Assembly: GCA_963783375.1 (NCBI GenBank)
Contig: CAWANH010000029.1
Span: 1,408,001 to 1,472,000 of the forward strand
Length of the DNA stretch: 64,000 nt
DNA from: Candidatus Eiseniibacteriota bacterium
Lineage (GTDB): Bacteria; Eisenbacteria; RBG-16-71-46; JABDJR01
Direction of reading: 5' to 3'
The notes under the pieces are model-generated. The model saw only the letters and a list, made by a program, of their open reading frames with translations, was not told the origin of the DNA and did not search any database. A program made the translations under genes and the position numbers. Of the stretch, positions 44,421 through 64,000 are shown in pieces; position 1 is the stretch's first letter; every line of letters starts with the position of its first letter.

Positions 44421-44443
44421 CGCCCCGCTCTTCCCTCCGATGG

Positions 44444-45177: not shown

Positions 45178-45194
45178 TCATTCCCCCTCAGGGT

Positions 45195-46745: not shown

Positions 46746-46908
46746 CCGTCGCCCTCCTCGGGGCCGGGATAAATCCGCGCCCCAGTTCCAGCCCACCATC
46801 TTAGGCCGGGGATGGTAGCGGGGGGAACACCCAGGAATCCTGACCATTTTTGTATTCTATGATTTCCGGTGAGGCCGCGGGATTCTTATTGCGATTGATT
46901 TCGTCCGC

Positions 46909-46977: not shown

Positions 46978-47454
46978 ATGGAAGATCGATCCGTCTCGCT
47001 CCCCCCATCGGGTCGCCGCCGTTTCCTGGGATGGCTCCTGGGCACGTCCGGCGCGGCGTTGCTCTTCTCCGCGCTCTATCCCGTCCTCCGGTTCATCAGT
47101 CCTCCCCGCGTTCCCGAAGCGAGCACCAACCAGGTGGAGGCGGGTCCGGTCAACGACCCCGAGCTCATCCAGAAGGGGTACAAGATCATCCACTTCGGGA
47201 ACGACCCGGTCATCCTCATACGCGCCGCCGAGAATCACTTCGTGGCCCTCTCGGCCACCTGCACGCACCTGGATTGCATCGTGGAGTTTCAGAAGAACCG
47301 GGACCGGATCTACTGCAATTGCCACGGCGGGGTCTACGATCTCTCGGGACGCAACGTGGCCGGCCCTCCCCCCCGACCTCTCACTCCGTTCAAGGTCGAT
47401 GTCGTGGCCGCCCAGAGCGGCCAGCCCGCGACCATCATCGTTTCCCGGGCATAA
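46978..47454 (+). CDS. Rieske 2Fe-2S subunit
   Basis: Tat-like RRRFL plus TM helix; CTHLDC and CNCHGG. Confidence 0.95.
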   Translation: MEDRSVSLPPSGRRRFLGWLLGTSGAALLFSALYPVLRFISPPRVPEASTNQVEAGPVNDPELIQKGYKIIHFGNDPVILIRAAENHFVALSATCTHLDCIVEFQKNRDRIYCNCHGGVYDLSGRNVAGPPPRPLTPFKVDVVAAQSGQPATIIVSRA

Positions 47455-47457
47455 AAC

Positions 47458-48615
47458 ATGGCGCGCGAATCCCTCTTCCGATGGCTTGACCGCCGCCTCC
47501 ACGTCTCCTTCCTCGTCGACGCGGGCTCCCACAAGACCGTCCCCCTCCATCGCTACACCGTCTTCTACTACCTGGGTGGCATGACGCTGTTCTTCTTCAT
47601 CGTCCAGGCGGTGACCGGCGTGCTCCTCATGCTCTACTATCGCCCTTCGGCCGGGGAGGCGTTCGAGTCGGTCGAGTTCATCATGACCACCGTTCCCTTC
47701 GGCTGGCTCCTGCGGTCCATCCATTCCTGGTCGGCCAATCTTCTCGTCTTCTTCGCCTTCCTGCACATGGCCACCGTCTTCATCATGAAGGGCTACCGCC
47801 CGCCGCGGGAACTCACCTGGATCACCGGTTGCGTGGTCTTCTTCCTGGTCATGGCCTTCGGGTTCTCCGGCTATCTCCTTCCCTGGAACCAACTTGCATT
47901 CTTCGCGACCAAGGTGGGCACCGACATCGCGGGATCGGTTCCGGTGGTCGGGGAGTGGCTGCTGCGGTTCCTCCGCGGCGGCGATCGCGTGACCGGAGGA
48001 ACCCTCTCGCGGTTCTACGGCTGGCACGTGGCCATCCTGCCGTCGATCACCCTGCTCCTCCTGGGGCTCCATCTTCTCCTCGTCCAGATCCACGGCATGA
48101 GCGAGCCCGAGGCGGTCCGGCGGCGCGAGGTGAAGTCTCCCGGCATGAAGTTCTTTCCCCATTTCGCCCTCCGCGATCTCTTCGGGTGGACGGTGGCCCT
48201 GGGCGTGCTGGCCGCCCTGGCCGCGTTGTTCCCGTGGGAGCTCGGCGAGAAGGCCAACCCCTTCGCCCCGGCCTACCCGAACATCCGGCCCGAGTGGTAC
48301 TTCATGTTCATGTTCCAGACCCTGAAGCTCGTCCCGGGGGGCGAGATCGCGGGGATCGAGTACGAGGCGTTTCCCATTCTCCTGTTCGGGCTGGGGGGGG
48401 TGGTCCTGCTCCTTCTCCCCCTCTTCGACACCGGCGCCAAGCGGGTACGAACCCTCTTCACGAACGCTCTCGGCGGAGCGGCCCTGGCCTACGCGGTGGG
48501 GATGACGGTGTGGGGCTATCGATCCGCGGTGCCTCTGCTCCTGGTGGCCGCGGTCGCGGCGCTCCTCGTTTTGACGGCGTGGCTCACGCGCGGCACGCGG
48601 AGGTCACCATCGTGA
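47458..48615 (+). CDS. Cytochrome b (unsplit; b6-like and subunit IV-like parts fused)
   Basis: YLGG, RSIHSW, GYLLPWNQ, RFYGWH, PEWY. Confidence 0.95.
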   Translation: MARESLFRWLDRRLHVSFLVDAGSHKTVPLHRYTVFYYLGGMTLFFFIVQAVTGVLLMLYYRPSAGEAFESVEFIMTTVPFGWLLRSIHSWSANLLVFFAFLHMATVFIMKGYRPPRELTWITGCVVFFLVMAFGFSGYLLPWNQLAFFATKVGTDIAGSVPVVGEWLLRFLRGGDRVTGGTLSRFYGWHVAILPSITLLLLGLHLLLVQIHGMSEPEAVRRREVKSPGMKFFPHFALRDLFGWTVALGVLAALAALFPWELGEKANPFAPAYPNIRPEWYFMFMFQTLKLVPGGEIAGIEYEAFPILLFGLGGVVLLLLPLFDTGAKRVRTLFTNALGGAALAYAVGMTVWGYRSAVPLLLVAAVAALLVLTAWLTRGTRRSPS

Positions 48616-50348
48616 TCGGGCTCTTGAACCTCATGCTCCCGCTTCTTCTCGCCGCGGATCCGGCGGCGATCGCGCCTTCGCAATCGCCACAGGCTCCGCA
48701 GACCCCGCAGACCTCCTGCACCACGTGCCACATGAGCCCCGACCTGTTCGACGCCGAGAGCCTGAAGGAGTGGGAGGGGATCGACCGGGACGTGCACCAT
48801 CAGGCCGGGCTCTCCTGCCAGGACTGCCACGGCGGCAACCCGGATCCCGCGTTGAGCGAGGATGCCGAAGCGGCCATGGACCCGAACTTCACCGCCAACC
48901 CCTTCCGGGGGGCCCCGCTCCGGACGGCGATCCCCGCGTTTTGCGGCCGGTGCCATTCCGATCCCGTCTACATGAAGCGTTTCCGTCCCGACCCGCGGAT
49001 CGACCAGGAGCAGGAGTACTGGACGAGCCGCCACGGCAAGGCCTTGCGCACCGGGGATATCAACGTGGCCACCTGCATCGACTGCCACGGCACCCACCGG
49101 ATCCTCCCCCCGGACAACCCCGAGGCCCCGGTGTACCCGACCCACGTGGCCGAAACCTGCGGCCGGTGCCACTCGGATCCCGAGCACATGAAGGGGTATC
49201 GGCTGGACGACGGGCGGCCCCTCCCGGTGGACCAGTACGCCCGTTGGTCACGGAGCGTTCACGCCAACGCCCTCCTGGTGAAGGGGGATCTCACCGCCCC
49301 CACCTGCAACGACTGCCACGGCAACCACGGCGCGACTCCTCCGGGGGTCAAGGAGGTAGCGTTGGTCTGCGGCCAGTGCCACGGCCGCGAAGCGAACCTC
49401 TTCCGGGCGAGCCCCAAGCAGGTGGGATTCCAGAACCACAACGATTTCCTGGCCGAGGCCGGGGACGAGGGTTGCGCCTCGTGTCACGACGCCGACCAAC
49501 CGCCGGGCACGATGACGGGGATTCAGCGCTTCTACGGGTGCGTGGTTTGCCACGAGAACCACGGCGTCGTCCGCCCGACCATCGCCCTCCTGAGCCCGCT
49601 CCCCGACACTCCCTGCGCGCTCTGCCACGAGGGTCCCGAGCCGGCGGGCACTACGGGGGAGCCGGAGAAGGTCAAGCAGCACTTCCGCGAGGTGCGGGAT
49701 GCCCTGCTGGCCAAGACGGTGGGGATGGCCCCCGAAGACCGGTTCGATTGGCTGGTCGACCAGGCGCTGGTCCTCGATACCCACACGCTCCCCGGCGGGG
49801 AAGGCGAGGCTCCCGCCCTCCGGCCCGAGTTTGCGCGCCTCTTCGAGCGGTTCCGTATCGGCAAGACCCACTACACCTTCGTGGATCCGGAAACCGGGAC
49901 CGAGGTCAAAGCCCGCGTTCGCCGGTGCGGCGATTGCCATGCCGCGCCCCCGGATTCGGAGCCTCCGGAAGGCGGCTTCGCCGTCTCCCAGGAGTATCTG
50001 GACGACATGCATGCGCTTACCTTGCAGATCGCCCGGGCCGAGCGGAGCTTCCTCGCCGCCCAGCGCGGCGGCGTCGAGGTCCGGGAGGCGCTTACCTCGC
50101 TCGATAGCGCGGTGGACAGCCAAATCCAGCTCGAGGTGCTCGTCCACGGATTCTCCACCAGCCAGGATGGAGCCTTCGTCGCCAAGCAGAAGGAGGGCAT
50201 GGCCCACGCCCAGGCGGCCGCGGTCACCGCTCAGCGCGCGCTCGAGGAGCTGACGAACCGCCGTCGCGGTCTCAGCATCTCCCTCATCTTCATCCTCATC
50301 TTCCTCACCGCCCTCGGCCTCAAGATCCGAGATCTCTCCCGACCCTGA
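48612..50348 (+). CDS. Membrane-anchored 11-heme cytochrome c
   Basis: 11 CxxCH motifs counted; signal peptide; C-terminal helical stalk and TM helix. GTG start overlaps the cytochrome b stop. Confidence 0.9.
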   Translation: MIGLLNLMLPLLLAADPAAIAPSQSPQAPQTPQTSCTTCHMSPDLFDAESLKEWEGIDRDVHHQAGLSCQDCHGGNPDPALSEDAEAAMDPNFTANPFRGAPLRTAIPAFCGRCHSDPVYMKRFRPDPRIDQEQEYWTSRHGKALRTGDINVATCIDCHGTHRILPPDNPEAPVYPTHVAETCGRCHSDPEHMKGYRLDDGRPLPVDQYARWSRSVHANALLVKGDLTAPTCNDCHGNHGATPPGVKEVALVCGQCHGREANLFRASPKQVGFQNHNDFLAEAGDEGCASCHDADQPPGTMTGIQRFYGCVVCHENHGVVRPTIALLSPLPDTPCALCHEGPEPAGTTGEPEKVKQHFREVRDALLAKTVGMAPEDRFDWLVDQALVLDTHTLPGGEGEAPALRPEFARLFERFRIGKTHYTFVDPETGTEVKARVRRCGDCHAAPPDSEPPEGGFAVSQEYLDDMHALTLQIARAERSFLAAQRGGVEVREALTSLDSAVDSQIQLEVLVHGFSTSQDGAFVAKQKEGMAHAQAAAVTAQRALEELTNRRRGLSISLIFILIFLTALGLKIRDLSRP

Positions 50349-51096
50349 TCCAACCGGCGGGCGGGAGGATCGTCGGAGACGGACGGCGGCCATCATGGGC
50401 ACCGACCGTCCGCCAGGGACCCACCCCTGCGCTTTCCTATCCCCGCTTCGACCTGCGGGGGGGTGGACTTCCATCTCCAGGTCCCCGCCCATACCGGGCG
50501 CGACGCGGTCCGGCGGGACACGGGACGGGATTCCCGGGAAGGGACACGAGCCCGGCCCGTTCCTGAAGTCGTGTCGTGAGGGGAGCCGATGACCGTCGGA
50601 CCGGGCACCGGAGCGTCCGACGACGCAGGCGTACCCGGTGCGGTACGTCGAGGAGGCGGACCGCGAGGACGCCCGAGCCGCCGATCAGATGCCCGCCGGA
50701 CCAGCCGGTTGGTGAATGGGCCGGACCGGAAGTGAACCCCGGGAGATTCCTGCGCCTACCCGGGCACCGCCGGTGGATCCGGATTGCCGGCTTCACCTTG
50801 AGACACCCCACTGTGCCGACAACGATGGACTCAGGTGGAAGCTTCAGACCCATGTGGACACGGGTCGGCGAGGCGCGCCCCTTCAAGTCTCGCCGCCGGA
50901 GACGGCAGTCTCTCGATGGAATAAACGGGCGGGCGCCCATCCGGACGCCCGCCCGACTTCCAGAGACCTATCGTCGCAATGGAACCCTACCGGCTCGGCT
51001 CGGTCCGGTCGACCGTGGACCGAGCCTCCCTCCCTCCGGCGACCGCCGGGCCCCGTTCAGGAACGGCCGCCCGGGCCCCGAGGGGAGGTTGGGAGC

Positions 51097-52074
51097 CTAG
51101 TGCACCGCGGCGGCGCTTGCCCCCATCCTCGAGAGACCCTCCTCGAGCAACGCCTTCGCGTAGTCGGGGTTGTGAACGCCCATGCTCTTGTCCTCGTGCA
51201 TGACGTAGAGCCAGTTGTAGAGCGCAATCCCCTGATCCTCGGGGGCCTCCGAGACGGTCGGATGCCCGTCCTCCGAGTTCTCGTTGATGAGGCCGGCGTT
51301 CACCAGCAACGCTCCGAGCTGGCTCCCCAGGTCCTCGATCTCGGTCTGCACGCCCTTGTAGTCGAAGCTCGTGGCCTCGGGGTGACAGCGCTGGCAGGTG
51401 GCCAGGGCGGGCTCGAAGTGGTGGTCATTGGTATCACCCATGTGACAATCGACGCAGGTGTTCGTCACCGCTCCGTAGTGCGGGCTCACGGTCCCCGTTA
51501 CACCGGCGCCGGCGACGCCGAGCAGCATGGCGCTCTGCGGACCGTGGTGCGGGCCCCAGTGGGAGCTGATACCGGTGATCACGCCGTTTTCCGCCACCGG
51601 GAAATCGCGACGCGGCTGGTGACAGTTGGCGCACAGGTTCCCCTCCCCGCCGTCGAAGGTCGCACCTTCGATGGAGGCGAGGTGAACCGGTTGCGCGGTT
51701 CTCAGCGAGAAGTCCGCCATCGAGTAGGTCTCGTGGATCATGTGACAGGCGCGGCAGTCCTGGCGCGTCGGGTCCGGCTGGCCCATCTCCACCTCGGTCG
51801 GGTTCTCCCCCGCCGCCACCATCTCCTGGAAGCCGTTCCCGGAGTGGCACCCGGCGCAACTTGCGCTGCTCGACCGCACGTAGGCCGTTCCGGTGCCGTG
51901 CACGGACTCCGCCCACTCGGTTTGCTTCCCGGTGATGATGCTGCTGGCGTTGTGGCAATCCGCGCAGGACAGCGGCTTGGTCGACTCGACGCGGGTGATG
52001 GTGCGATCACACGACTGGGCGCCGATCAGCACCGCGACTGCCCCGAGTGCTAGGATGGTTTTTGCGACGGACAT
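51097..52074 (-). CDS. Hexaheme cytochrome c lipoprotein
   Basis: Lipobox-like GAQSC; 6 CxxCH; C-terminal helices with GVHNPDYA. Confidence 0.88.
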   Translation of the reverse strand: MSVAKTILALGAVAVLIGAQSCDRTITRVESTKPLSCADCHNASSIITGKQTEWAESVHGTGTAYVRSSSASCAGCHSGNGFQEMVAAGENPTEVEMGQPDPTRQDCRACHMIHETYSMADFSLRTAQPVHLASIEGATFDGGEGNLCANCHQPRRDFPVAENGVITGISSHWGPHHGPQSAMLLGVAGAGVTGTVSPHYGAVTNTCVDCHMGDTNDHHFEPALATCQRCHPEATSFDYKGVQTEIEDLGSQLGALLVNAGLINENSEDGHPTVSEAPEDQGIALYNWLYVMHEDKSMGVHNPDYAKALLEEGLSRMGASAAAVH

Positions 52075-52107
52075 CTAGGCCTCCTTCTTTTCCTTTTCTG
52101 CTTGCGC

Positions 52108-53676
52108 TTACTTCCCGTGCAGGTCGTAAGCGACGTTGAACCAGACCACATTGGCGGTGTAGTAGCGATCCAGGAGAATGTAATCGTCGTAGTTGTACAC
52201 GTTGTACTTGGCCTCGAGGTGAATGTCGTCCTTGACGGCGTATGCCCCCTCGAAGAAGAGAATCGACTTCTCGATATCCAGGTCGCCGCCCACGTTCAGG
52301 AAGGTGAGACCGCTGGAAAGACGCAGATCCTTGATCCTCTCCAGGTCCACCCGGCCGGTGACGCTGTTGTTCCAGGCCCGGAACCTCCCGGTGCGATCCT
52401 GGAACTCGTCGTTGGAATACTCGTAAGTCCCCGACAACCCGCCCCATCCGGCATAGGCGTACCGGGCGTATGCGGAGGCGACCTGTCCCGTGGCGCTGAC
52501 GTCGATATCGGGATAGTCCCGGTCACGAATACGGAATCCCGAACCGATCGAAAGACCCTTGACCGGGTTCACCTCCAGGTCGCCACGGAAATGGGCGGTC
52601 TCGATGTCCTTGAGAAGGGTCAGCTCCTCCTGGTCCTTCTTCAGCCTGCCCGCGTACCGGAACCTGGCGGTGAGGAGCTTGTTGTACCGGAAGGTCGTCG
52701 CCGCCCGCCAGCTGCTGTAGTACGTGAGGGAGACCTCGTCGTCGTTGGTCTCGTATCCGTAGCCGAGGGAGACGTCGCCGTACCGGTAGAAAACGGTGGC
52801 GTCGATGTCGTTGGTGAAGCGATCCGTCTTGAGATCGGTGGTCTGGTCGTCGATCCGCTGGGCTTCGAATCGGTACTCGAGGCGCAGGGGATCGACCGGA
52901 TCGATCAGGCCGGTGTACTGGAAATTGGCCAGGGTGTAGTCCAGGTCCCCGGTGGAGAGGTTGCTGACCCCGTAGGCCGCCCGCAAGAGGTGTGTCCACC
53001 TGTCGTAGAACATGCAGGGAGTCGCGATCCGGGCCGAGACGACCTGGCCGGTGCGGTCGGCGTCCGAGTTCCGCTGGTCGCTGAAGTCGGAGACGCGATA
53101 GTCGACGGCCAGAACCCTTCGGTTCTTCCGGGCCTCCGCCGACACACGGCCGGAGAGGAGGCCGCTGTCGTACCGGAGCCCCAGGGCGTCGGCGGTTCCG
53201 GGTGGATAGGATAGACGGTTCCCGGTCTGGGTGATGTAGCCCAGGGATCCCTCGAGTTTGATCCAGCGCTCCGGAGTGAATCGCGCGTTCAGGTTCCAGT
53301 TCCGCCGGTCGGACGTCGTGTTGCGGCCGGGGTCGAACACCTGGCGGTTTTGGGTGAGCGAAGCCGACAGCTTGAATCTGCCCGGTCGCCGGTAGAGCAA
53401 CTTCCCTTGACGACTGTCGAAGTTGATCTCCTTGAGGTCGATCATCAGGTAGTTGTCGGGATTCGGCGTTCCGGTCAGGCGGAGCTGGGTGATGGAGAAC
53501 CCGTCGTGGATGTTGTAGGTCTCCTGGACCGCGGACCGGTCCCCCACCTCATCGAGGATGACCCCGCCCAGTTTCACGGTCCCGGTCCACGCCCCCGCCC
53601 GAAGCGGAGCCGCCCCCAGGACGAAGATGAGCATGGCCATGAGTGTCGCTCGGGTCTTCATTCGCATTCGCACCAT
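52108..53676 (-). CDS. Outer-membrane beta-barrel (MtrB/PioB-like position)
   Basis: Signal peptide, alternating beta-strand pattern, aromatic C-terminal strand; lies between two multiheme genes. Confidence 0.8.
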   Translation of the reverse strand: MVRMRMKTRATLMAMLIFVLGAAPLRAGAWTGTVKLGGVILDEVGDRSAVQETYNIHDGFSITQLRLTGTPNPDNYLMIDLKEINFDSRQGKLLYRRPGRFKLSASLTQNRQVFDPGRNTTSDRRNWNLNARFTPERWIKLEGSLGYITQTGNRLSYPPGTADALGLRYDSGLLSGRVSAEARKNRRVLAVDYRVSDFSDQRNSDADRTGQVVSARIATPCMFYDRWTHLLRAAYGVSNLSTGDLDYTLANFQYTGLIDPVDPLRLEYRFEAQRIDDQTTDLKTDRFTNDIDATVFYRYGDVSLGYGYETNDDEVSLTYYSSWRAATTFRYNKLLTARFRYAGRLKKDQEELTLLKDIETAHFRGDLEVNPVKGLSIGSGFRIRDRDYPDIDVSATGQVASAYARYAYAGWGGLSGTYEYSNDEFQDRTGRFRAWNNSVTGRVDLERIKDLRLSSGLTFLNVGGDLDIEKSILFFEGAYAVKDDIHLEAKYNVYNYDDYILLDRYYTANVVWFNVAYDLHGK

Positions 53677-53680
53677 CCTA

Positions 53681-54640
53681 CTACTGGTGACAGCCTGATT
53701 TGAGACAGCCTTGGTCCCTGAGCGACTCGCTCAGGAAGTTCCGGCTGGTGTAGGAACCGTGAATGTCCACGTGGCAGTCGTTGCACGGAATGTCGGCCCA
53801 TCTGGTTCCGTGATGGGAGTTCATCTGGTGTAGCGGGACGGTGTGGCACTGCTTGCACAGCTGGAAGTTCGGAGCCTCGTAGGGCTGCTTGAGCATCCGC
53901 GGCAGGTAGGACCCGTGGGGGTCGTGACAGTTCATGCAGCCCCCCTCCTCCGTGGAGTAATCCACCGTCGCCTGGTGCTCGTAGGGGAACGGTCCCTGGA
54001 ACTCGCCGTGGCAGCTCGTGCACATCTCGCTGCCGTTCCTGGACATGTCCCGGGAGCCGGCGTCCAGGGTCTTGTGACAATCGGCGCAGTTCATGACTCC
54101 GTCATCGACCGGATGCCGGAAGGGCTTGGCGAACTGATTTCCCACCGCGGTGTGGCACCCCAGGCACAGATCGGGCTGCGCTTTCCTGAGGAGCGGAGGC
54201 TGGGTGGAAGCGTGGACGCTGTGACAGCCGCTGCAGTTCACGTCGCTCCGGGCGTGGACGTTCTTTTCCATCATGTTTTGCTGGTGGCTGTTCAGGTGGC
54301 AGGTGGAGCAGATCTTGCCTTCGACCGCCGCGCTCAGGGCGGCGGGAACCGGCATCGGATACTGCTCCGGGTCCTCCTCGTAGTGACGAGAGTCCCCGCG
54401 GTGGCAATCGGTGCAGGCTACCCGGACATCGGCTCCCTGATCGGATTCCCGGGCCACCCGATGGGGGGTCAGTGCGAGTGAATCGGCCATTCCCTCATGG
54501 CACGTCAGGCATGTTTCGGTTTCACGGGGGTAGTCCCCGGCGGAGGGATCCGGCTGCGATCCGGCGAGAAGAACGATGACAAAAGGAACAAGGAATAACA
54601 CCGGCACGTAGCGACGCAGTTCCTTGGCTTGCTCTTTCAA
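53681..54640 (-). CDS. MtrA/DmsE-family decaheme cytochrome
   Basis: 10 CxxCH plus terminal CLKSGCH; GPFPYEH..., CHDPHGS, CHVDIHGS are typical of the family. TTG start after GGAGG. Confidence 0.88.
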   Translation of the reverse strand: MKEQAKELRRYVPVLFLVPFVIVLLAGSQPDPSAGDYPRETETCLTCHEGMADSLALTPHRVARESDQGADVRVACTDCHRGDSRHYEEDPEQYPMPVPAALSAAVEGKICSTCHLNSHQQNMMEKNVHARSDVNCSGCHSVHASTQPPLLRKAQPDLCLGCHTAVGNQFAKPFRHPVDDGVMNCADCHKTLDAGSRDMSRNGSEMCTSCHGEFQGPFPYEHQATVDYSTEEGGCMNCHDPHGSYLPRMLKQPYEAPNFQLCKQCHTVPLHQMNSHHGTRWADIPCNDCHVDIHGSYTSRNFLSESLRDQGCLKSGCHQ

Positions 54641-54911
54641 TGGGCCCCCTCCGAAGAAAGACCGCCTATGTAGCTCTTTCAGGGCGAAACGTACCAACAC
54701 CTTAACGGAGCCGTCAAAGTGCTTTTTCCGATTTGACTTATTCTTTTATCGTGTTCCGGAGGGAGATCTCCCCATTCAAACCTGGAATATGAGGTATCAA
54801 GAGAAAACAGATAATTCTTGTCATAAAATCTTTCCTCCGGAACCCGCCCGGGCGCGTTCCCCCGGGGGAAGGCCGCCCTGGAAAGCGGCCTCCCCCCGAG
54901 CCGTCGTACGC

Positions 54912-57900
54912 CTACGGCCCCGAGGGGGAACGCACCTGCATGTTCTCCCCCAGGTGGCACTGCATGCACAGGTCCCGGGTCTTGTCGTGGGTCAGGAGCG
55001 CCTCGAAGGGACTCGAGTGCGGGTCATGACAGGACGTGCAGGTGATGGCCAACCCGGTCCGGGGGTCCTTGGTCGGACCCTGGTAGGGGTGGAAGTGGCT
55101 CTTGGTCACATCGTCATGGCACTGGAGGCAGAGCTTTTCCTGAGGCTCGTTCAGGATGCCCCGGGTCGCGCTCCCGTGAGGGTCGTGGCAGGTGTCGCAG
55201 CCGCCCACGTCCGGGTGCTTGTACTCTCCGGCGAACATGGCCCGGTCATGGCAGGTGAAGCAGGTCGAGGCCTCGTCCTCACGCCTGAGAAGCGACGCCG
55301 TCCGCCCGGCATGGGGGGAGTGGCAGTTGAGGCAGGCCAGCTTCTCGGTCACCGCGGGGTGGACCACCGGCTTCTCGGCGTCCTTGGCATGGCCGCCGTG
55401 ACAGGTGACGCAGAGCGCCGCTCCCTCCGCCTTCAGCCCGTTCTGCCCGGCGTGGCACGCCATGCAGTCCTTCTGGGCGTAGGGGGCGTGGTTGAAGGCC
55501 AGGACGAGGCCCGGCTCGGTCGAGCCGTGGGGATCGTGGCAGCTCGTGCAGTCCCCCTTCCCCGCCTCGAACCCACGGTGCCTGGCTTTGAAGGCGGAGG
55601 CGGTCTCGTCGTGGCACTGCCCGCACAGGGCCTTGGCCGGCTCGGCCAGGAGCCCCTTCACCGTCCCCACGTGGGGGTCGTGACAGGTCTGGCAATCCCC
55701 TTCCTTGGCCGGGGGATGGGCGTTGGCCAGCCGGCTCCGCTCGGCGACCGCCGGGTGGCAGTCGGCGCAGAGGCCCGGAGCCGCCTCCTTGAGGAGTCCG
55801 GGCATGACCCCCTCGTGCCCGCCGTGGCAGACCCGGCAGTTCCCATCCCGGACCGGGCTGTGGACCAGGTCGGGGTCGGCCTTCTTGATCCGCCCGCCCG
55901 GGTCGTCATGGCACCGGGCGCAGAGTCCGGGCCCCGAGTCCACGAGCAGGGTCGAGTCGGCGGCGGCATGGGGATTGTGGCAGCTCGCGCACTCCCCCGC
56001 CTCCACCGGGGCGTGAAGTCCCTTGGGGGGCGCCGGGGCCTCGATCGCCCCGTGGCAGGACCCGCAGAGCTCGACCTGGGAGTCCACCAGCTCCACCTTC
56101 CCCCCCGGGGACTGGGGCTTGTGGCAGGTGGAGCAGGACCCCGGGCCGAAGGGCTCGTGGCGGACCGCTCGCAGGAGCCCCTTTTCCCGGCTCCGATGCG
56201 GATCGTGGCAGGATAGGCAGCTTCCCCCCTCCGGGGCGAAGTTGTCGTGGAGCTTCCTGAAATCCCGGTCCCCCACGTCGTGGCAGGAGCTGCAGGGGTT
56301 CTTCAGCGCCACCAGCCCGTCGGCGCCCTTGGTCTGGTGGGGATCGTGGCAGACCTCGCAGTTCCCCTCCTTCACCGGGGGATGGACGGTCCCGCTGTCC
56401 AGGGAGTCCTTCATCGCGGTGTGGCAGGTGAAGCAGATCTCGCCCTTGGCCGCCCTCAGGAAGGGCGGTCCGTCGGCGGTCCCGTGGGGATTGTGGCAGT
56501 CGGCGCACTTTCCCTCCGCCGCCGGCTCGTGGAGGGTCGCGGGGGGAAGATCGGCGGTCACCTCGCTGTGGCAGCCCCCGCAGAGCTCGGCGGCCGGGCT
56601 CACCAGGAGTCCGCGATTGGTCCCGCCGTGCGGCCGGTGACAGTCGGTGCACTCACCCTCGGCGAAGGGCGGGTGGGGGCTCGCCACCCTGAGCTCGTCG
56701 ACCTGCCTCGCGTGGCAGGGCAGACAGACCAGGGGCTGCTTCTGGACCAGGATGGCCGGGTTGTCGCTCCCGTGAGCCTGGTGGCAGTCGGCGCACCCGT
56801 TCCCGGCGAAGGGGAAGTGCACCACCGGGAGCTTCCGCTCCCCGGCGGTGTCCTCATGGCAGGAAAGACAGGTCACGTCCTCGGCCTGGGTCAGGAGATG
56901 CGGCTGGGTGCTGACGTGCGCGGTGTGGCAGGCGCGGCAATCGTCCTGGAGCGGGGCGTGGGGCACCTTGACCGAATCGGCGGCGGCGATCACGTCCTGG
57001 TGGCAGGACGCGCAGAGGTCCGGCGAGGCCTTTCGCAGCATGGCCTTCCCGCCGCCCCCGTGGGGGGCGTGACAGGCGTCACAGGCCAGGGCCTCGAACG
57101 GGGCGTGCCGCGACACCAGGTCCTTCTGGTCGCGCGGGTCCTCATGGCAGACGAAGCAGAGATCCTCGGCGTTTCCCTTGAGCAGGAACCTACGGTCCGC
57201 GCTGTGGGGATCGTGGCAGAACAGGCAGTCGCCTTCCGCCGCGGGAGGATGGCCGCCCGGCCCCGCGGCGGTTTCCCCCACGTCGGAGTGGCAGGTCACG
57301 CAGAGATCTTCCTTCGACGCGGTGAGCTCCCCGGGCTTGTCCGGCAGGCCGGCGTGGCAGGCCTGGCAGTCCGCCTCGGCGTAGGGAGCGTGCACGTATC
57401 CCCGGTTCTGGTCCGTGCTGGTTGAACCGTGGGGATCGTGGCACGATGAACAGGACGCGCCCGCTACCTCCGGTCGAGCATGGAGTTCCGGCAGCTCCGA
57501 TACGGGACCGTGGCAGCGGGCGCAAAGCTCTTTCTCGGGCGCGACCAGAAGGTTCGCGTTGGCCGAGTTGTGGGGAAGGTGGCACTCGGAGCACTTCCCC
57601 TCCTCGAAGGGTTTGTGTTTCCGGGTGGAGGCGATGGCCGCCTTGAGCTTGGGATGGCAGGAGGCGCAGGTCTCGGCTTCGGGACCGCGGAGCAGCCCCT
57701 TCTGGTCCGAGGCATGGGGATCATGGCAGCCGTCACAGGTGACCCCTTCCACCGCCAGATGATCCGAGCCCGAATCCGGGGCCACCTTCACGTCCTGGTG
57801 GCAATCCGTGCAGAGCTGGGGGAAGTCCTTCTGAAGGATCAGCGACTGGGCGAAGCCGTGCCGCTTGTGACAGGACTCGCAGTCCTCCTGCGCCGTCGGG

Positions 57901-58076
57901 ATGTGAACGACCTTCTTCCCCTTGAACTCGTCCCGGGCCTTCTGGTGGCAGTCGTAGCAGGGGCGTCGCTGGAGCGCCTCGCTTCGGCCGGCGAATTCCG
58001 GCAGGAAGAGCCCGGCCGCCACGGCCAGGACCACGAACCCGAGGCCGACGACGGCGGTGCGAACGCGGGGAACCAT
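54912..58076 (-). CDS. Giant 42-heme cytochrome c (paired CxxCH repeats)
   Basis: 42 CxxCH counted by hand in about 1050 aa; repeating HxP...CxxCHxPH...LL...LCxxCH units; N-terminal signal or anchor. Confidence 0.92.
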   Translation of the reverse strand: MVPRVRTAVVGLGFVVLAVAAGLFLPEFAGRSEALQRRPCYDCHQKARDEFKGKKVVHIPTAQEDCESCHKRHGFAQSLILQKDFPQLCTDCHQDVKVAPDSGSDHLAVEGVTCDGCHDPHASDQKGLLRGPEAETCASCHPKLKAAIASTRKHKPFEEGKCSECHLPHNSANANLLVAPEKELCARCHGPVSELPELHARPEVAGASCSSCHDPHGSTSTDQNRGYVHAPYAEADCQACHAGLPDKPGELTASKEDLCVTCHSDVGETAAGPGGHPPAAEGDCLFCHDPHSADRRFLLKGNAEDLCFVCHEDPRDQKDLVSRHAPFEALACDACHAPHGGGGKAMLRKASPDLCASCHQDVIAAADSVKVPHAPLQDDCRACHTAHVSTQPHLLTQAEDVTCLSCHEDTAGERKLPVVHFPFAGNGCADCHQAHGSDNPAILVQKQPLVCLPCHARQVDELRVASPHPPFAEGECTDCHRPHGGTNRGLLVSPAAELCGGCHSEVTADLPPATLHEPAAEGKCADCHNPHGTADGPPFLRAAKGEICFTCHTAMKDSLDSGTVHPPVKEGNCEVCHDPHQTKGADGLVALKNPCSSCHDVGDRDFRKLHDNFAPEGGSCLSCHDPHRSREKGLLRAVRHEPFGPGSCSTCHKPQSPGGKVELVDSQVELCGSCHGAIEAPAPPKGLHAPVEAGECASCHNPHAAADSTLLVDSGPGLCARCHDDPGGRIKKADPDLVHSPVRDGNCRVCHGGHEGVMPGLLKEAAPGLCADCHPAVAERSRLANAHPPAKEGDCQTCHDPHVGTVKGLLAEPAKALCGQCHDETASAFKARHRGFEAGKGDCTSCHDPHGSTEPGLVLAFNHAPYAQKDCMACHAGQNGLKAEGAALCVTCHGGHAKDAEKPVVHPAVTEKLACLNCHSPHAGRTASLLRREDEASTCFTCHDRAMFAGEYKHPDVGGCDTCHDPHGSATRGILNEPQEKLCLQCHDDVTKSHFHPYQGPTKDPRTGLAITCTSCHDPHSSPFEALLTHDKTRDLCMQCHLGENMQVRSPSGP

Positions 58077-58077
58077 G

Positions 58078-58629
58078 TTACTTCTCCTCGGCGCTGGGAG
58101 GTTCGTAGCCATGAACTTCCTTGAGCTGGAACGTGAAGAACGATTTCGGCGAGAAGTGAGGCGGGAAGTTCAGGAACGCCCACGAGCTGTCGACCGCCGC
58201 CCCCTCCTTGAACACCAGCACGTGGACGGCCGGGTTCTTCATTTCCATGGAGAAGTTCACCGGCTTGCCGCCGGCGATCTTGAAGTCGGGCATGAAGCCG
58301 CTCACCCGGGCGGTGTAGGGAGTGTCCCCCAGGTACATCGTCTCGCCGAGCTTCACGGTGTGGGACTCGCTCCAGCTCGGGTACATCCGGTTTCCCACCT
58401 CGAGGCCGAAGCTCAAGGTGGTGTCGGCCGCGATGGCCGCGGTGTCGGCTCCGGTTTCGGGCCCCGTGGTCCTGGGAAGCGAGCGAAGGATGGCGGCGGC
58501 GCCCGAGTCCGGCGACGCCTCCTCGGGGTGGACGGCCGCCGAATCCGCCGGCGCGTCCTGGGATCGGGCCCCGTCCGCCCAGGCCCAGACCAGGAGTCCC
58601 AACCCCACCGCGATCAAGATCCGTCTCAT
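58078..58629 (-). CDS. Exported hypothetical protein (possibly ResB-like beta domain)
   Basis: Signal peptide; FMPDFKI...S.EMKNPAV...WAFLNFP. Confidence 0.65.
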   Translation of the reverse strand: MRRILIAVGLGLLVWAWADGARSQDAPADSAAVHPEEASPDSGAAAILRSLPRTTGPETGADTAAIAADTTLSFGLEVGNRMYPSWSESHTVKLGETMYLGDTPYTARVSGFMPDFKIAGGKPVNFSMEMKNPAVHVLVFKEGAAVDSSWAFLNFPPHFSPKSFFTFQLKEVHGYEPPSAEEK

Positions 58630-59282
58630 CCGATCCCTCCCTTTCCCGGCGCCACACCCACGTCCGTCCGGTCCGACTCTCCCGTGTCCTTCGGGGGCGG
58701 CGAGCTCGACGCTCCGGCGCCGCCCCGGACCGGAGGCAGGGTGGAGAGAATCCCCTCCACGGTTTCCGAAGCCAATCGCTCCAGGCTGGACACCCGCCCG
58801 ATACCGAACACGCTTTCCTTGTCCCCGCCGTCCCGGCTGTACACCGCACTCCAGAGCACCTTCCCCCCGGGCACCTCCAGGAGCCGGAGAGACACCGAAA
58901 CCTGGGGCACCTGGCTTCCGTCCGCATCCCGATAGCCGTAGGCGAGGACCGACCCCACCAGGAGCGCGTTGGCCCCCATCTCCACCCCCAGTGAATCCAC
59001 CAGGTCCGGGGGCAGGCGGTCGGTCATGATCCACGGCTGCTTGGAGAGCGCAGCCTCCATACGTCCCACATCCACCACCGCGATCCCGCGGTGCTCGGCC
59101 AGGGCCACCGCGAGCATCGGGGCAAGCCGGTCGGGAGCGTCCCGGGTCGGCGTGTAGTTGGCCAGGGGAAGGATCCCCACCCGCCAGCTTCCGCTCAAGG
59201 GCTCCGCAACGTACGCCCGAGGCCCCGGCGCGCAGCCGGCCAGGACCAGGATGATGGCCGCGAGAACCGTCTTCCGGGTCAT
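58626..59282 (-). CDS. Lipoprotein, CsgG/LpoB/GNA1162-like fold
   Basis: Lipobox LAGC; VGILPLAN, GANALLVGSV, VSLRLLEV..GKVLWSA. Confidence 0.75.
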   Translation of the reverse strand: MTRKTVLAAIILVLAGCAPGPRAYVAEPLSGSWRVGILPLANYTPTRDAPDRLAPMLAVALAEHRGIAVVDVGRMEAALSKQPWIMTDRLPPDLVDSLGVEMGANALLVGSVLAYGYRDADGSQVPQVSVSLRLLEVPGGKVLWSAVYSRDGGDKESVFGIGRVSSLERLASETVEGILSTLPPVRGGAGASSSPPPKDTGESDRTDVGVAPGKGGIG

Positions 59283-59869
59283 CAGCGCCTCGCTCGCGGA
59301 AGTGAGGACAGAAGTCCCCGGCAGACGTCGGCGGTGAGGGTTTCCATCAGCCGCACCCCTCCCCAGCCGAGGATGGGGAAACCGGCCCCGCCCTTCCGGG
59401 TCTCGCTCGCGCTCCAGACCAGGCGGCCGGTGGCCGCGTCCACCAGGCGCACCTCGATGGAAAACAGTGGATAGGAATCGCGCCCGGAGCTCACCATCTC
59501 GTACTGCCGCACCGTGCCCATGAAGATCCCCTGCACGCCCGCCTTTTCTCCCAGTTGGGCCAGTTGTTCGGTCGACCAGGGAGTCTCGGCGGGGATCCCC
59601 CCGCGGATCTGGGTCATGTCCGCGGCGAACTGTCCGGGTTCCACCACCTCGGCGAACCCCCGTTCCAGGAGCTCGGTGAAGAACACGTTGGTGACCCGGT
59701 ATCCCGCGGCCCGATCCTGGGCGAGGCTGGTGAAGGGGATGATGCCCACCCTCTCGTAGAAAGGCAGGTCGGCCTCGGGGTTCAGGAACCGGGTCGGACC
59801 CCCGCAACCGGAGACGGCGATGAGCGTCGTCGCCACCAGGAGCGCTCGGAGCCTCGAAACGTTGTTCAT
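59282..59869 (-). CDS. Lipoprotein, CsgG/LpoB/GNA1162-like fold (paralog)
   Basis: Lipobox VSGC; VGIIPF, GVQGIFMGTV, VRLVDAATGRLVWSA. Confidence 0.78.
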   Translation of the reverse strand: MNNVSRLRALLVATTLIAVSGCGGPTRFLNPEADLPFYERVGIIPFTSLAQDRAAGYRVTNVFFTELLERGFAEVVEPGQFAADMTQIRGGIPAETPWSTEQLAQLGEKAGVQGIFMGTVRQYEMVSSGRDSYPLFSIEVRLVDAATGRLVWSASETRKGGAGFPILGWGGVRLMETLTADVCRGLLSSLPRARR

Positions 59870-59887
59870 GAAGTTCTCGCTTCCCGT

Positions 59888-61464
59888 CTAGAAATTCCGG
59901 TCCACCGAGAGACCGTAGGTGTCCAACGTGGCCCGCCCCCGGACCGCGACCTGTCGCCAGGAAAGCTGAACCCGGGTGCGACGGGCAGGCCAGAAAGTGA
60001 AGTCGGTTCCCTTGATGATCTCGGAGGAGCGCGAGGTGAGGACCAGGGCCTCCCGCCGGGACCAGTCGAGGGAGAGGGAGGTGCGCTGGCCGAGCCGCAG
60101 GTTCCCGGTCAGGCTCCCGTAGCGTTCTTCGCGGTCGATCCGGCCCCGTCCGTTCTGGCGCCGGTAGGTCGCCACCAGGTCCGCCCCCGTGGCCGGCTGG
60201 TACCCGACCTGGTACTCCCACTGGCGATCGGTCTGGGCCCTCCCGTCGATTTCGGGGAGGGTGTCCCTCCGCCAGGTGACCTCGAACCGGGTATCCCGGC
60301 TGGGAAGGGTGCGGAGCTGGATCAGGCGATGCCACTGGGTTCCGGTGGAGACCGAGCCCCCCGCGCGCGACGCCCGGAGCTCGGCGCGGGCGTTGATTCC
60401 CTTGCGGAGGAGGCCGTCCACCAGGGTGAAGACGGTGTTCTGGGGGATCGAGCCGTCTTCGGAGCGGATGTTGAAGGAGCGGAGGTAGCCGGACTGGAAG
60501 GTCATCCCCCGAACGATCTCCCGCCGGAAAATGGCCTGGAGACGAGCGTAGTCCGCTTCGATGTCTCCGTCCACGGCCTGGCGCCGTCGATACTCCCGGA
60601 GCCCTTCGAGGCTCAGCCCCTTCACCGGCTGGTAGGCCAGGCGCCCGCTCAGGTAGCGTTCGTTGATGGTCTGATCGGCGGTCAGGGCATTGTCCTGACT
60701 CCGCCCCCAGTACACCAGCGCCGAGGTACCGACGGTGAACCGCCGGGAAGGCGCCCAGCTCGAGTTCAGGTTCATTCGCTGGGTGTAGAAGGTCCGGTCC
60801 CGGTCCCGGGAACCGAAGGTGGAGTAAAGGGCGTCGTAGGTGGCCTGGGCGTTGGCCCGGCCGAGATTGACCCCGGTCCGGAGCCCCCCCGCCACTCCTC
60901 GGTCCGGGTGTCGGGGTTCAGCCCTCCCATGGGGCGGGCGTCCAGTCTCCGCCAGGAAAGGTTGCTTCCGAAAACCCCGCCGGCGGCGTAGGAAACCTCG
61001 GCCCGGCGATCGTCGGTGGTGGAGCGGCCCTGAAGGGTCTCCCGATCCTGGCGTTCGTACTTCAGCGCCATCCTCGGGGCGCCGCGCGGGCTCACGTCGA
61101 GACCGAAAAGCAGGTTCCGGTCCCGGGACGTGCTAACGCCCACCGACGTCTGCTGCCAGGGGGTGAACTGGGTGGTGAGACGCCAGGCAGGCTTTCTGAG
61201 GTCGGCGAAGAAACGGGAGCTCAGGAGGTCCGAGTTCTCTTGTCCCGGGTTCGCCCGGTAGGAGAGGGACATGCGGAGCCTGAGGTCGGCGCTTCCGGGG
61301 AGCACGGCGCGCGTGCTCAGGTCGTAGTAGTGGCGCATGACGTCCGCGTCCGCTATTCCCGAGGTGTGGTGGTACGAACCCACGTAGCGACCCTCGTAGG
61401 CCCCGGCCCCCGCCGGAACGGCCAGAGTCGCCCCGGCCAGGATGAGCGCCGCCCACCGGTGCAT
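59888..61464 (-). pseudogene. Outer-membrane beta-barrel split by a 1-nt frameshift in a G7 run (60884-60890)
   Basis: 5' ORF with signal peptide and 3' ORF ending in ...SVDRNF join in frame if the run is G8. Confidence 0.78.
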
Positions 61465-62621
61465 CAGGGTCCTCCCCGTCCCCACGGGCTCGGGCTTCCC
61501 GGTGCGCCGTTACCGGGCTCGCCCGGATTGTGAACGTTGTGGGAGGTGGGACCGGAGTAGTCGCGGCCGTGGCAGTCGTAGCAACTCTGGAAGCCGGTGG
61601 AGCGATGGGGGCCCCGGTCGGAGAGGGTGTTCATGACGATTCCCTCCACCGTCTGCGCCCCGGGAATCCCGTCCGAGGCGATGTGGCAGCCGAGGCAGAA
61701 CCGGCGGCACTGGGTCGCGTCGTTCACGGTGTCGGTGAGCCCGCTCCAGTCAACCCGCTCGTCGCTGATCAGGTATCCGTTCGGCTGCACCCGGTTGTGC
61801 CCCTCGGAACCGTGGGGATTGTGGCAGTCGTAGCAGGGGAGCATGTCCCCGACCTGGATGTGCGCGGGCCAGGAGAGGGCGACCCGGGATTCCTTCCGGA
61901 TCTGGTGGCCGGCGTGCTCGCCGTTCAACCCCGCGTCGTAGTAGTCCGCGATGTTCCGGTTCGCGGGGTCCATGCCTCCCGGCGCGTCCTGGTCGTGGCA
62001 GGAGAAGCAAAGCGCGTATTCCTCGGGAGATCCCACCGCGGCGTGGCCGCCGATCCCCCCGTAGGGCTTCAGCAGGAGGTCGCGACGATTCGGGGTGCCG
62101 TGAGGATCGTGGCAGTTCTCGCAACGCCCCTCTCCCGAGGCGTCTCGCCGGGGCATGTCGGGGTCCTGGGCGTGAGGCGAAAAGAAGTGACCCCCGGGCG
62201 TGATTCCCGGATCGGTGTAGGCGGTCTCCCCCGGCCAGCGGCCGCGATAGTTCACGCCGACCAGGCGCTCCCCGCCGGTGTTGGCCTCGAAGTAACCGGC
62301 GTCGGGTTCGGACTCGGGCATGCGGTCGGATTCGCCGAGGGGGTAATTGCCGGGACGGCGGCGGTGGCACGGTTCTGCCCCCTGGTCCCAGAAGGCGAGC
62401 TGGTTGGTGTTCTCGGTGAAGAGGAGGAGCGGATAGGGGGAGGGCTCCCACGCGTCGCCGTGGGGAGGATGGCACTGCTGGCACTGCCCCCGGGCCTGAT
62501 CGGCGTCACGGAGCACCCCGGTCTGCGGGTCCCCATGGGGATCGAAGGGCGTGTCCGCGGATATGTTCCAAGCAGCCAGAAGCAGGGCCGCCGTGAGAAC
62601 CATGCCGGAAACGGGTCTCAC
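61464..62621 (-). CDS. Exported multiheme cytochrome c (6 CxxCH plus one degenerate site)
   Basis: CQQCH, CENCH, CFSCH, CYDCH, CLGCH, CYDCH; extra AEPCH; signal peptide. Confidence 0.88.
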   Translation of the reverse strand: MRPVSGMVLTAALLLAAWNISADTPFDPHGDPQTGVLRDADQARGQCQQCHPPHGDAWEPSPYPLLLFTENTNQLAFWDQGAEPCHRRRPGNYPLGESDRMPESEPDAGYFEANTGGERLVGVNYRGRWPGETAYTDPGITPGGHFFSPHAQDPDMPRRDASGEGRCENCHDPHGTPNRRDLLLKPYGGIGGHAAVGSPEEYALCFSCHDQDAPGGMDPANRNIADYYDAGLNGEHAGHQIRKESRVALSWPAHIQVGDMLPCYDCHNPHGSEGHNRVQPNGYLISDERVDWSGLTDTVNDATQCRRFCLGCHIASDGIPGAQTVEGIVMNTLSDRGPHRSTGFQSCYDCHGRDYSGPTSHNVHNPGEPGNGAPGSPSPWGRGGP

Positions 62622-62670
62622 ACCAAGCTCCCCCGGCCGCAATGTCGAAACGGGAAGGCAATGATGGACC

Positions 62671-62714
62671 GGATTCGGGCACCGGCAGTGGCCGGATTGT
62701 CGGTGCCCGAATCC
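62671..62714. terminator. Strong intergenic hairpin after the omcS-like gene
   Basis: GGATTCGGGCACCG...CGGTGCCCGAATCC, a 14-bp perfect stem with no clear U-tract. Confidence 0.6.
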
Positions 62715-62774
62715 CGTCGAAACGGGGAGGCCGGGCGCGCTAGCGCTTCGGCCGCCCTAATCCACCACCAGGCT

Positions 62775-63845
62775 TTACTGGGCCTGGGTGTGGCACTGAC
62801 CGCAGAGGGCGCGGGCCGAAGTCCCGTCGTCGCCCTGCTCGGTCACCGTGCCGGTGCCGATCATGTAGATCAGGCCGAACGCGTTCTGGTTGCCGTGGCC
62901 CTTGTGGCACGACATGCAGGACTGCGTGAGGCCGGTGTCGGTCCCGTCGTATGCGCCGGCCTTCTGGCCGGTGGGCGACATGACCTGGACCTGGTTGGTC
63001 TTCCCGGTCAGGAAGGCCAGACCGGAGTGACCGCCGCCCAGGGCGCCGATGTCGACACCCGCCGCCGGGTGACGCACGAAGTCCGCGGGAGGAGCTCCCG
63101 TGCCGCCGATCTCCGCCCCGCCGATGTCACCGTGGAAGTTGGTGTGGCAGGCCTTGCAGAAGGAGGCATAGGCGGACGCGGTCGTCACCGGCTCGTTGAA
63201 GGTGATCGCCCCGACCCCGTAGTGGTTGGCGCTGGTGCCGCTGGAGGCATTCTCGTACACCCACTTGGTGAGATCGTTGGCACCCTCGACGTCGCCGCGG
63301 GAGTAGGTCAGGAGGGTCGAGATCCCGCTCAGCGGAGGACCATAACCGCCCAGGTTCCGATAGGTATTGACGTGAGCCGAGTTGCCGCCGTGGGGCGAAT
63401 GGCAGTCGGTGCACTTCAGACCATCGGGATCGCTGAACGTGCCGCCCGGAGCCACGGCCAGCGAGTTCAGGGTGTGCCCGGTGGTCGGCGGATAGAGACC
63501 GTTGCCGCCCAACTCGTTCAGGGCACCCGCCTGACGGACATAGCCGTTGGTGTGGGTTTCGAACACGTCCGGCGCGAGCGCCTGCCCATCGTGGCAGGCC
63601 AGGCACAGGTTGTTGATATCGTCACGGAGCAGGAACTCGAACGGGCCGCCCGGTCCGAGCGGCGTGTAGAAGCCCGATCCGTTGGGGTTGTATCCATGGC
63701 TCTGGCTGTAGTGCATGACGTGGCAGTCGGAGCAGATCAAGGCCGAGCCGGTGTGATAATCACCGGCGAATCCGACGGACACGAGCACGGTCAGAGCGAG
63801 GAGAATCCCCGGACCAAGGAGGAGTTTCTTCCTCATAGCCACCAT
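62775..63845 (-). CDS. OmcS-like hexaheme cytochrome c
   Basis: Signal peptide, then YH...CSDCHVMH, CLACH, GH...APGGT...CTDCHSPHG, YRNLGG, CKACHTNFH, RHPA, CMSCHKGH, RALCGQCH. Start may be ATG 63836. Confidence 0.85.
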   Translation of the reverse strand: MVAMRKKLLLGPGILLALTVLVSVGFAGDYHTGSALICSDCHVMHYSQSHGYNPNGSGFYTPLGPGGPFEFLLRDDINNLCLACHDGQALAPDVFETHTNGYVRQAGALNELGGNGLYPPTTGHTLNSLAVAPGGTFSDPDGLKCTDCHSPHGGNSAHVNTYRNLGGYGPPLSGISTLLTYSRGDVEGANDLTKWVYENASSGTSANHYGVGAITFNEPVTTASAYASFCKACHTNFHGDIGGAEIGGTGAPPADFVRHPAAGVDIGALGGGHSGLAFLTGKTNQVQVMSPTGQKAGAYDGTDTGLTQSCMSCHKGHGNQNAFGLIYMIGTGTVTEQGDDGTSARALCGQCHTQAQ

Positions 63846-64000
63846 TACCTCCCTTGCACGGTTGCGAGACCGATTCCGGAGACTCCGGAACCGCTTTGCT
63901 CCACATGATCGCGGGCCCCCGTCACGGGAGGCACGGCCACCTGGAGCACCTGGCAGCGGGCGCCCGCCCGCTCCAAGACTGCGAGCCGGTCCGCGGCCAG

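Follow-up and report, generated by a model that had tools for sequence, protein, structure and literature searches.

We analysed a 64,000-nucleotide stretch, hereafter the window, of a Candidatus Eiseniibacteriota genome (assembly GCA_963783375.1, contig CAWANH010000029.1; G000:C29:1408001-1472000 in our numbering, where G000 is this genome), which ends in a dense island of multiheme cytochrome genes. The island is a mosaic of four separable electron-transfer modules within about 21 kb: an ImcH-like quinol dehydrogenase gene with a tetraheme gene; a block of the OmcS type, a variant of the Geobacter omcS-companion (osc) cluster; an Mtr-like block; and a Rieske/cytochrome b/11-heme operon. All of its parts are variants of known systems, and together they form a mosaic specific to the lineage, not one fixed machine. 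On balance, we consider it probable that the cell respires on acceptors outside the outer membrane, with entry through the ImcH-like protein, two exits, and the Rieske/cytochrome b complex standing apart.

Six-frame translation of the window identified six cytochrome open reading frames (ORFs) with 11, 6, 10, 42, 6 and 6 CxxCH motifs, which confirms the total of 81 given in a preliminary description of this DNA. Over all six frames, positions 46978-63845 contain 82 such motifs, compared to at most 4 (mean 0.69) when this stretch was base-shuffled 100 times, ruling out a chance build-up; the other 47 kb of the window contain a single motif. The co-location reported earlier for a 17-kb island was upheld, but its extent was not. 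The island continues 3.6 kb beyond the window end, through genes for an NHL propeller, a tetraheme cytochrome and the ImcH-like protein, and reaches about 20.6 kb with 91 canonical CxxCH motifs. The Rieske, cytochrome b and 11-heme genes are located on the plus strand. All other island genes are on the minus strand and converge on them, and from the ImcH-like gene through the hexaheme lipoprotein gene they form a single-strand series in which many genes overlap or lie a few bases apart. The last minus-strand gene is followed by a terminator-like hairpin of 13 pairs and a T-run (50926..50955, minus strand), which is supported by its position and strength only, as the overall hairpin count is at chance level (8 versus 8.5 by chance). 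No sigma-70 promoters were found. The GC content of the island is like that of the rest of the window, with no contrast marking recent acquisition.

The minus-strand gene at 62775..63845 encodes a 356-residue hexaheme protein that is predicted to be an OmcS-family member with the OmcS fold and is a candidate filament subunit. A single-sequence PDB search with this protein did not find OmcS; a profile or fold was needed. A 106-sequence profile matches OmcS (6EF8) with an E value of 2e-7. The structural model (predicted local distance difference test, pLDDT, 79.7) matches 6EF8 alone in Foldseek (E 5e-6), and VIA aligned the two over 258 residues with Z 12.6 and a root-mean-square deviation of 3.8 Å, the next match having Z 4.0. 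The histidine aligned with OmcS His16, three residues after the first CxxCH, is conserved in 44 of 44 homologs. We take His16 to be the inter-subunit heme ligand of OmcS. Structural work on the OmcS filament reports that one heme ligand is supplied by the neighboring subunit (PMC6584659).

The genes that follow on the minus strand resemble those of osc clusters. A second hexaheme protein with six CxxCH motifs (61464..62621) is an OmcS-related paralog in an OscC-like position; its hhalign match to the OmcS-like profile (98.9%) spans 39 columns only. This second cytochrome varies among relatives, having nine hemes instead of six in many fused-type clusters (L026-L032, L049, L060, L061, L068, L070; cluster types are described below) and 12 hemes after the OmcS-like gene in L052, L058 and L076. 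Next are an osc-type outer-membrane beta-barrel of about 525 residues (59888..61464, minus strand, frame-split), which matches the barrels of split-type clusters, canonical-OmcS ones included (hhalign 96.9%, E 2e-10), and two lipoproteins. Lipoprotein A (59282..59869, minus strand) is CsgG/GNA1162/LpoB-like and 32% identical to a lipoprotein of G279 (E 2e-27). Lipoprotein B (58626..59282, minus strand) is CsgG/GNA1162-like based on sub-threshold Pfam matches and on its profile, which matches lipoproteins of canonical-OmcS clusters with E values of 4e-39 or better. Both are homologous to those of G279 and G401, our reference genomes with near-canonical OmcS (E 3e-112 to 6EF8 in G279).

In G279 the gene order is NHL, OmcS, propeller, barrel, two lipoproteins, SurA/PpiC, 26-heme, 16-heme, NHL, and G401 has the same core. 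Published work on the osc operon assigns folding to OscH, secretion to OscEFG and morphology to OscD, and equates oscC with GSU2501, oscI with GSU2495 and oscJ with GSU2494 (PMC13194489); the GSU2500-2493 block is reported to include the 26-heme GSU2495 (PMC12977616). Because the window genes and the G279/G401 order fit this account, we assign the block to the osc type. It is conserved across several phyla, and its closest named homolog loci are from Ca. Eisenbacteria and Krumholzibacteriota. With the Geobacter sulfurreducens cluster GSU2505-GSU2493 it shares an NHL propeller, two OmcS-like hexahemes of which one has the OmcS fold, a large barrel, CsgG-like lipoproteins and periplasmic cytochromes totalling 26+16 hemes, with the gene order compared via the near-canonical OmcS loci. 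In contrast to that cluster, the 26- and 16-heme genes are fused here, an unrelated 183-residue protein occupies the position of the SurA/PpiC chaperone, the barrel has about 525 rather than about 730 residues, the hexaheme is shorter and about 20% identical to OmcS, and ImcH-like and Mtr-like genes flank the block.

The 1054-residue, 42-heme periplasmic cytochrome (54912..58076, minus strand) is a fusion of the osc 26-heme and 16-heme pair. Proteins with 20-26 hemes encoded upstream in split-gene loci align best to approximately residues 2-657 (six of seven loci), and the 15-16-heme proteins align best to approximately residues 645-1041 (seven of seven). GSU2494 carries 16 hemes. The gene is not an assembly artefact, since G002 also has 42 hemes (95% identity) and 27 other loci have 41-42. 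The preliminary description cast this protein as a periplasmic wire; it is a large periplasmic cytochrome, but it belongs to the osc cluster instead of being an independent linker. Our literature searches, including one on extracellular electron transfer in Eisenbacteria, listed no description of a fused 42-heme osc variant, which Shen et al. 2025 and its supplements may cover.

Between this gene and lipoprotein B, 58078..58629 (minus strand) encodes a 183-residue exported protein of unassigned family at the position of the SurA/PpiC chaperone of split-type clusters. The protein is unrelated to the PpiC profile, and 12 homologs gave no Pfam family above cut-off. DUF2155 was rejected: it was suggested by an Atlas likeness of 0.89 only, and none of the 12 homologs match it in Pfam. 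We scanned 69 regions, 66 of them distinct after three duplicates were dropped. The 183-residue family is present in 32 of these loci and a PpiC gene in nine, and the two never occur together (0/66). The 32 loci comprise 27 with a single 41-42-heme ORF, two frameshifted, two edge-cut and one with 21 hemes; no fused heme ORF was found in the nine PpiC loci. The 21-heme gene (L055 15828-17681), half of 42, lies at the 42-heme gene's place and away from the locus edge. In a quick tree, cluster types follow lineage, with five type changes needed and at least two forced. The exclusivity of the 183-residue/fusion and PpiC/split types is probably inherited rather than a product of repeated co-evolution and, because types follow lineage, provides no independent evidence of functional coupling. 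No PpiC gene is present in the window's osc cluster, and the G279 chaperone has no tblastn match in G000 at E 1e-3; five other peptidyl-prolyl isomerase genes lie elsewhere in the genome. We infer that OscH corresponds to the SurA/PpiC gene at this position in G279 and G401.

The Mtr-like block follows on the same strand. An MtrA/DmsE-type decaheme (53681..54700, minus strand) matches PDB 6R2Q_A with an E value of 1e-24 and scores 181.8 bits against TIGR03508, just below the 192.2 cut-off. The adjacent 522-residue outer-membrane beta-barrel (52108..53676, minus strand) appears to be a distant, short MtrB/PioB relative. The porin itself has no Pfam match, and neither its single sequence nor its profile found a PDB sequence; MtrB_PioB (PF11854) is matched weakly by four of 14 family members (best E 1.4e-5), and Atlas places the porin at 0.94 to an MtrB/PioB cluster. 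The two beta-barrels of the preliminary description are both retained, on profile and language-model evidence and not on a fold, although the osc-side one is not an intact ORF. The families of the Mtr-side porin (52108-53676) and the osc-side barrel (59888-60895) also align with each other (hhalign 95.6%, E 1e-8), which may reflect generic barrel likeness or common descent.

The third protein of the block is a hexaheme lipoprotein (51097..52074, minus strand) with a lipobox-like Cys22 and a predicted OcwA/OmhA (NrfA-like) fold. A single-sequence PDB search found nothing, and a profile gave E values of 0.04 and worse. Its AF2 model (pLDDT 80.4) matches 6I5B in Foldseek (E 4e-5), and in VIA it scores Z 14.0 with OcwA, 13.1 with OmhA and 11.5 with NrfA-family enzymes. 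Because the last of these score nearly as high, the fold does not fix the function of the lipoprotein. It contains no CxxCK motif and many conserved extra histidines; these sequence features suggest bis-His electron-transfer hemes. OcwA is described as a surface iron reductase (PMC7829351). Gene order was examined in 14 of 17 relatives with a porin match: MtrA precedes the porin in all 14, and a homolog of the lipoprotein follows it in 12. The lipoprotein is likely the outer partner of the porin.

The Mtr-like exit proposed earlier stands in its MtrA-like decaheme and putatively MtrB-related porin, but MtrC is absent: the block encodes no decaheme MtrC/OmcA surface lipoprotein and has the hexaheme with the OcwA/OmhA fold in its place. 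By analogy, the trio would work like MtrCAB without being MtrCAB. An MtrA-type decaheme, then a barrel gene and a heme lipoprotein gene, are shared with Shewanella MtrCAB (6R2Q) and with MtrAB/MtoAB/PioAB, whereas the 522-residue porin below Pfam detection and the hexaheme in place of decaheme MtrC are not. The predicted fold of the lipoprotein is that of OcwA (Thermincola potens, 6I5B) and OmhA (Carboxydothermus ferrireducens, 6QVM), which carry 9 or 11 hemes rather than six; here the protein is a lipoprotein of a diderm and is encoded with a porin. Our literature searches listed no description of this porin-hexaheme trio.

Upstream of the OmcS-like gene lies an NHL beta-propeller gene (PF01436; minus strand), the 3' end of which occupies 63845..64000 and which starts beyond the window (L001 3845-4912). 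Of 56 loci, 37 have an NHL gene within 10 kb on either side of the OmcS-like gene. Outside the window, on the minus strand, are genes for a c554-like tetraheme (L001 5408-6001; PF13435, E 1e-17) and the ImcH-like quinol dehydrogenase (L001 6089-7600; NapC/NirT domain, PF03264, E 3e-10). The latter has 503 residues, three N-terminal membrane helices, six CxxCH motifs and one CxxxCH. We take this seven-heme, three-helix NapC/NirT layout to be that of Geobacter sulfurreducens ImcH (GSU3259), a likeness of layout; different from Geobacter, the gene heads conduit and filament genes here. In Geobacter, ImcH is reported to oxidise menaquinol (PMC12307469). The genome contains futalosine-type menaquinone genes and cytochrome c assembly genes, and the former indicate menaquinone in this host. 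The preliminary description placed quinol entry at the Rieske/cytochrome b complex, which is encoded on the convergent strand. Given that the ImcH-like gene is co-oriented with both exits, unlike that operon, its position makes it the likelier entry.

The complex itself was recognised correctly. The Rieske [2Fe-2S] protein (46978..47454, plus strand; PF00355, E 6e-12) has a Tat-type RRxFL leader and CTHLDC/CNCHGG boxes, and the unsplit, 385-residue cytochrome b (47458..48615, plus strand; PF00033, E 2e-50, and PF00032) has His89/103/190/205 and PEWY. The 11-heme cytochrome c (48612..50348, start approximate; plus strand) has a signal peptide and a C-terminal membrane anchor. Its gene follows the Rieske and cytochrome b genes in G002, G013, G063 and G132 as well, and the protein is the cytochrome c subunit of the complex. 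The CNCHGG box has a glycine where high-potential forms have a serine. Glycine at this position is typical of menaquinol systems, and menaquinol-type Rieske centres lie at approximately +100 to +170 mV. Since this is far above the midpoint of OmcS, forward flow from the complex into the filament is doubtful, and the operon is probably too high in potential to feed OmcS. The midpoint reported for the OmcS filament is -130 mV (PMC10954620). The operon is probably a separately transcribed add-on for higher-potential acceptors and more proton pumping. A second cytochrome b gene lies elsewhere in the genome, 2.4 kb from a split cox1 on C28.

A synteny survey of 151 genomes of the class showed how these modules are linked in relatives. 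The porin was present in 18 genomes, the OmcS-like gene in 47, cytochrome b in 63 and the ImcH-like gene in 43. Among genomes holding both members of a pair (G000 included), linkage within 25 kb was found for OmcS-porin in 3/8, OmcS-cytochrome b in 4/27, OmcS-ImcH in 3/12, porin-cytochrome b in 3/11 and porin-ImcH in 4/8; these counts are lower bounds, as many genomes are fragmented, and kin are not independent. Particular sets differ. Three contigs of the fragmented congener G002, at 93-97% DNA identity, together cover most of the island but leave the OmcS-like gene in a gap, and this genome probably also holds all four modules. In the congener G003, the ImcH, tetraheme, MtrA, porin and lipoprotein genes adjoin one another at this same chromosomal site, and the osc block is missing. 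Of the modules, G004 lacks just the Rieske/b operon; G013 combines ImcH, MtrA-porin and Rieske/b but has no osc; G072 has osc and the Mtr-like trio; and osc is linked to Rieske/b in G063, G123, G132 and G017. Modules thus gather repeatedly, pair by pair and in different sets, and therefore constitute an electron-transfer hotspot, not one fixed pathway. Of the complete co-located path proposed earlier, recurrent pairwise co-location is borne out and a single conserved path, seen in one of 151 genomes, is not.

Several further observations concern the site itself. In G003 (L102), 8-, 12- and 16-heme genes follow the hexaheme lipoprotein gene where G000 has the Rieske/b operon, and this site is a cytochrome exchange hotspot. 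Genes of a sodium-pumping decarboxylase (carboxyltransferase, biotin carrier and OAD beta; window 43284-46847) flank the island and are also kept in G002 and G003. In G279, from another phylum, genes for an NHL protein, an MtrA decaheme and a genuine PF11854 MtrB come directly after a canonical-OmcS cluster (L144 3211-7469).

In the scheme we favor, menaquinol would be oxidised by the ImcH-like protein, with the periplasmic tetraheme and 42-heme protein as the next carriers. One exit would be the MtrA decaheme, sheathed in the short porin, delivering electrons to the OcwA-fold surface lipoprotein for contact reduction. The other would be an OmcS-type filament acting at longer range, for whose export the osc-type barrel and two lipoproteins would serve. 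The Rieske/b complex would be a separate entry for higher-potential acceptors, not for the low-potential filament.

A number of points weigh against this scheme. All four modules were found together in only one of the 151 class genomes (G000), with the members of most pairs unlinked or split between contigs. The candidate filament subunit is just 18-23% identical to OmcS, and among OmcS paralogs only OmcS is reported to form a wire, homology annotation being described as error-prone (PMC12977616). OmcS is also reported to be dispensable for growth on Fe(III) oxide and anodes in some strains (PMC13194489), and a GSU2494 mutant to behave like wild type (PMC9248073). The latter result makes it less likely that the 42-heme protein is an essential wire. 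In this assembly, the osc barrel gene is frame-split near 60890, where a G-run has lost one base (G7, compared to G8 in the closest relative, G002). Finally, heme-copper and bd oxidases are encoded in the genome, making inward flow possible.

A bolder version of the outward scheme, which we regard as unlikely, would make the island a second, stripped-down OmcS nanowire machine. One 42-heme chain (approximately 30 nm if extended) would replace the 26+16 pair and diffusing carriers, wiring ImcH to the filament and to the OcwA-capped porin, and the small novel protein would substitute for SurA. The result would be a portable, near-complete quinol-to-mineral kit with one transcription direction, spanning, as part of the same proposal, Eisenbacteria, Krumholzibacteriota, Latescibacterota, Zixibacteria and Fibrobacterota.

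Inward flow, as in MtoAB/PioAB, strikes us as improbable. Fe(II), reduced minerals or partner cells would supply electrons that enter through the porin and decaheme and reach the oxygen reductases, while the Rieske/b complex and the ImcH-like protein would work backwards and reduce quinone. Pairs of MtrA and a porin that lack MtrC and neighbor a bc complex are characteristic of Fe(II) oxidisers, which we count for this explanation along with the heme-copper oxidase loci and bd oxidase and the linkage of the porin with Rieske/b genes in G000, G013, G042 and G075. A Krumholzibacteria metagenome-assembled genome is also reported to have both OmcS and Cyc2 (bioRxiv 2020.09.22.307553). Conversely, the surface partner has the predicted fold of iron-reducer reductases, and the cassette runs in the same direction as genes of the ImcH and OmcS types, which are known from reducers.

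A comparably small chance attaches to the possibility that the osc block serves to secrete or anchor surface cytochromes that do not polymerise, or is in decay in this strain, leaving the porin conduit as the sole working exit. The eight-gene block may, according to one report, have had a secretion role before OmcS arose (PMC12977616). Moreover, the folding chaperone is missing from the cluster, the barrel is frameshifted, and no OmcS-like ortholog was found in the congeners G001 and G003. However, the slip amounts to one homopolymer base and is likely an assembly error, because a short base run likewise breaks the reading frame of the core cox1 gene in this assembly (G000:C28:355819-357160). 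The barrel is in one frame in G002, G004, G007 and G038, the osc genes on the G002 contig are 89-98% identical to the G000 copies with the barrel unbroken, and the block is conserved across several phyla. Least credible is the single co-regulated chain of the preliminary description, in which the Rieske/cytochrome b complex feeds two exits via the 42-heme wire: Rieske/b adjoins osc-type clusters in G000, G063, G123, G132 and G017 (in G123 about 280 bases after the 42-heme gene on the same strand) and the G002 contigs fit most of the same island, but the operon is on the opposite strand in G000, no copy of it was found in G003 or G004, its linkage to the OmcS-like gene is limited to 4/27 genomes with both, and its expected Rieske potential is far above that of OmcS.

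The rest of the genome is also rich in multiheme cytochromes, with 41 ORFs containing at least two CxxCH motifs and 403 motifs in total. On C28, a 23-heme gene is followed by a giant repeat cytochrome in three overlapping frames of 51, 9 and 15 motifs (G000:C28:1119068-1127193), probably one gene of about 75 hemes broken by frameshifts. C1 and C13 carry multiheme clusters that nearly duplicate each other, and bd oxidase genes on C5 and C28 score equally, which hints at contigs that are redundant or mixed from several strains.

The combination of Shewanella-like and Geobacter-like strategies noted earlier is present here, but Mtr and Omc pathways in one genome have already been published for Desulfobacterota (PMC12133095). 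Those genomes, with Mtr, Omc and Pcc, likewise hold both types of exit. The combination was reported as restricted to Desulfobacterota and includes MtrC, whereas here the exits are adjacent on one strand and MtrC is absent. OmcS genes were reported in Krumholzibacteria in 2020 (bioRxiv 2020.09.22.307553).

Overall, the island is a sign of extracellular respiration in a candidate phylum that has received little study. With the chaperone absent and the 26- and 16-heme genes fused, it offers a compact parts list for the minimal folding and export needs of a cytochrome filament, one that also bears on how the filament is loaded with electrons across the periplasm. The porin-decaheme-hexaheme trio, which MtrC-based surveys would miss, suggests that reductases of the OcwA/OmhA type, solved from Gram-positive iron reducers, can fill the role of MtrC in diderms. 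The patchy linkage of its modules cautions against treating such islands as single fixed pathways.

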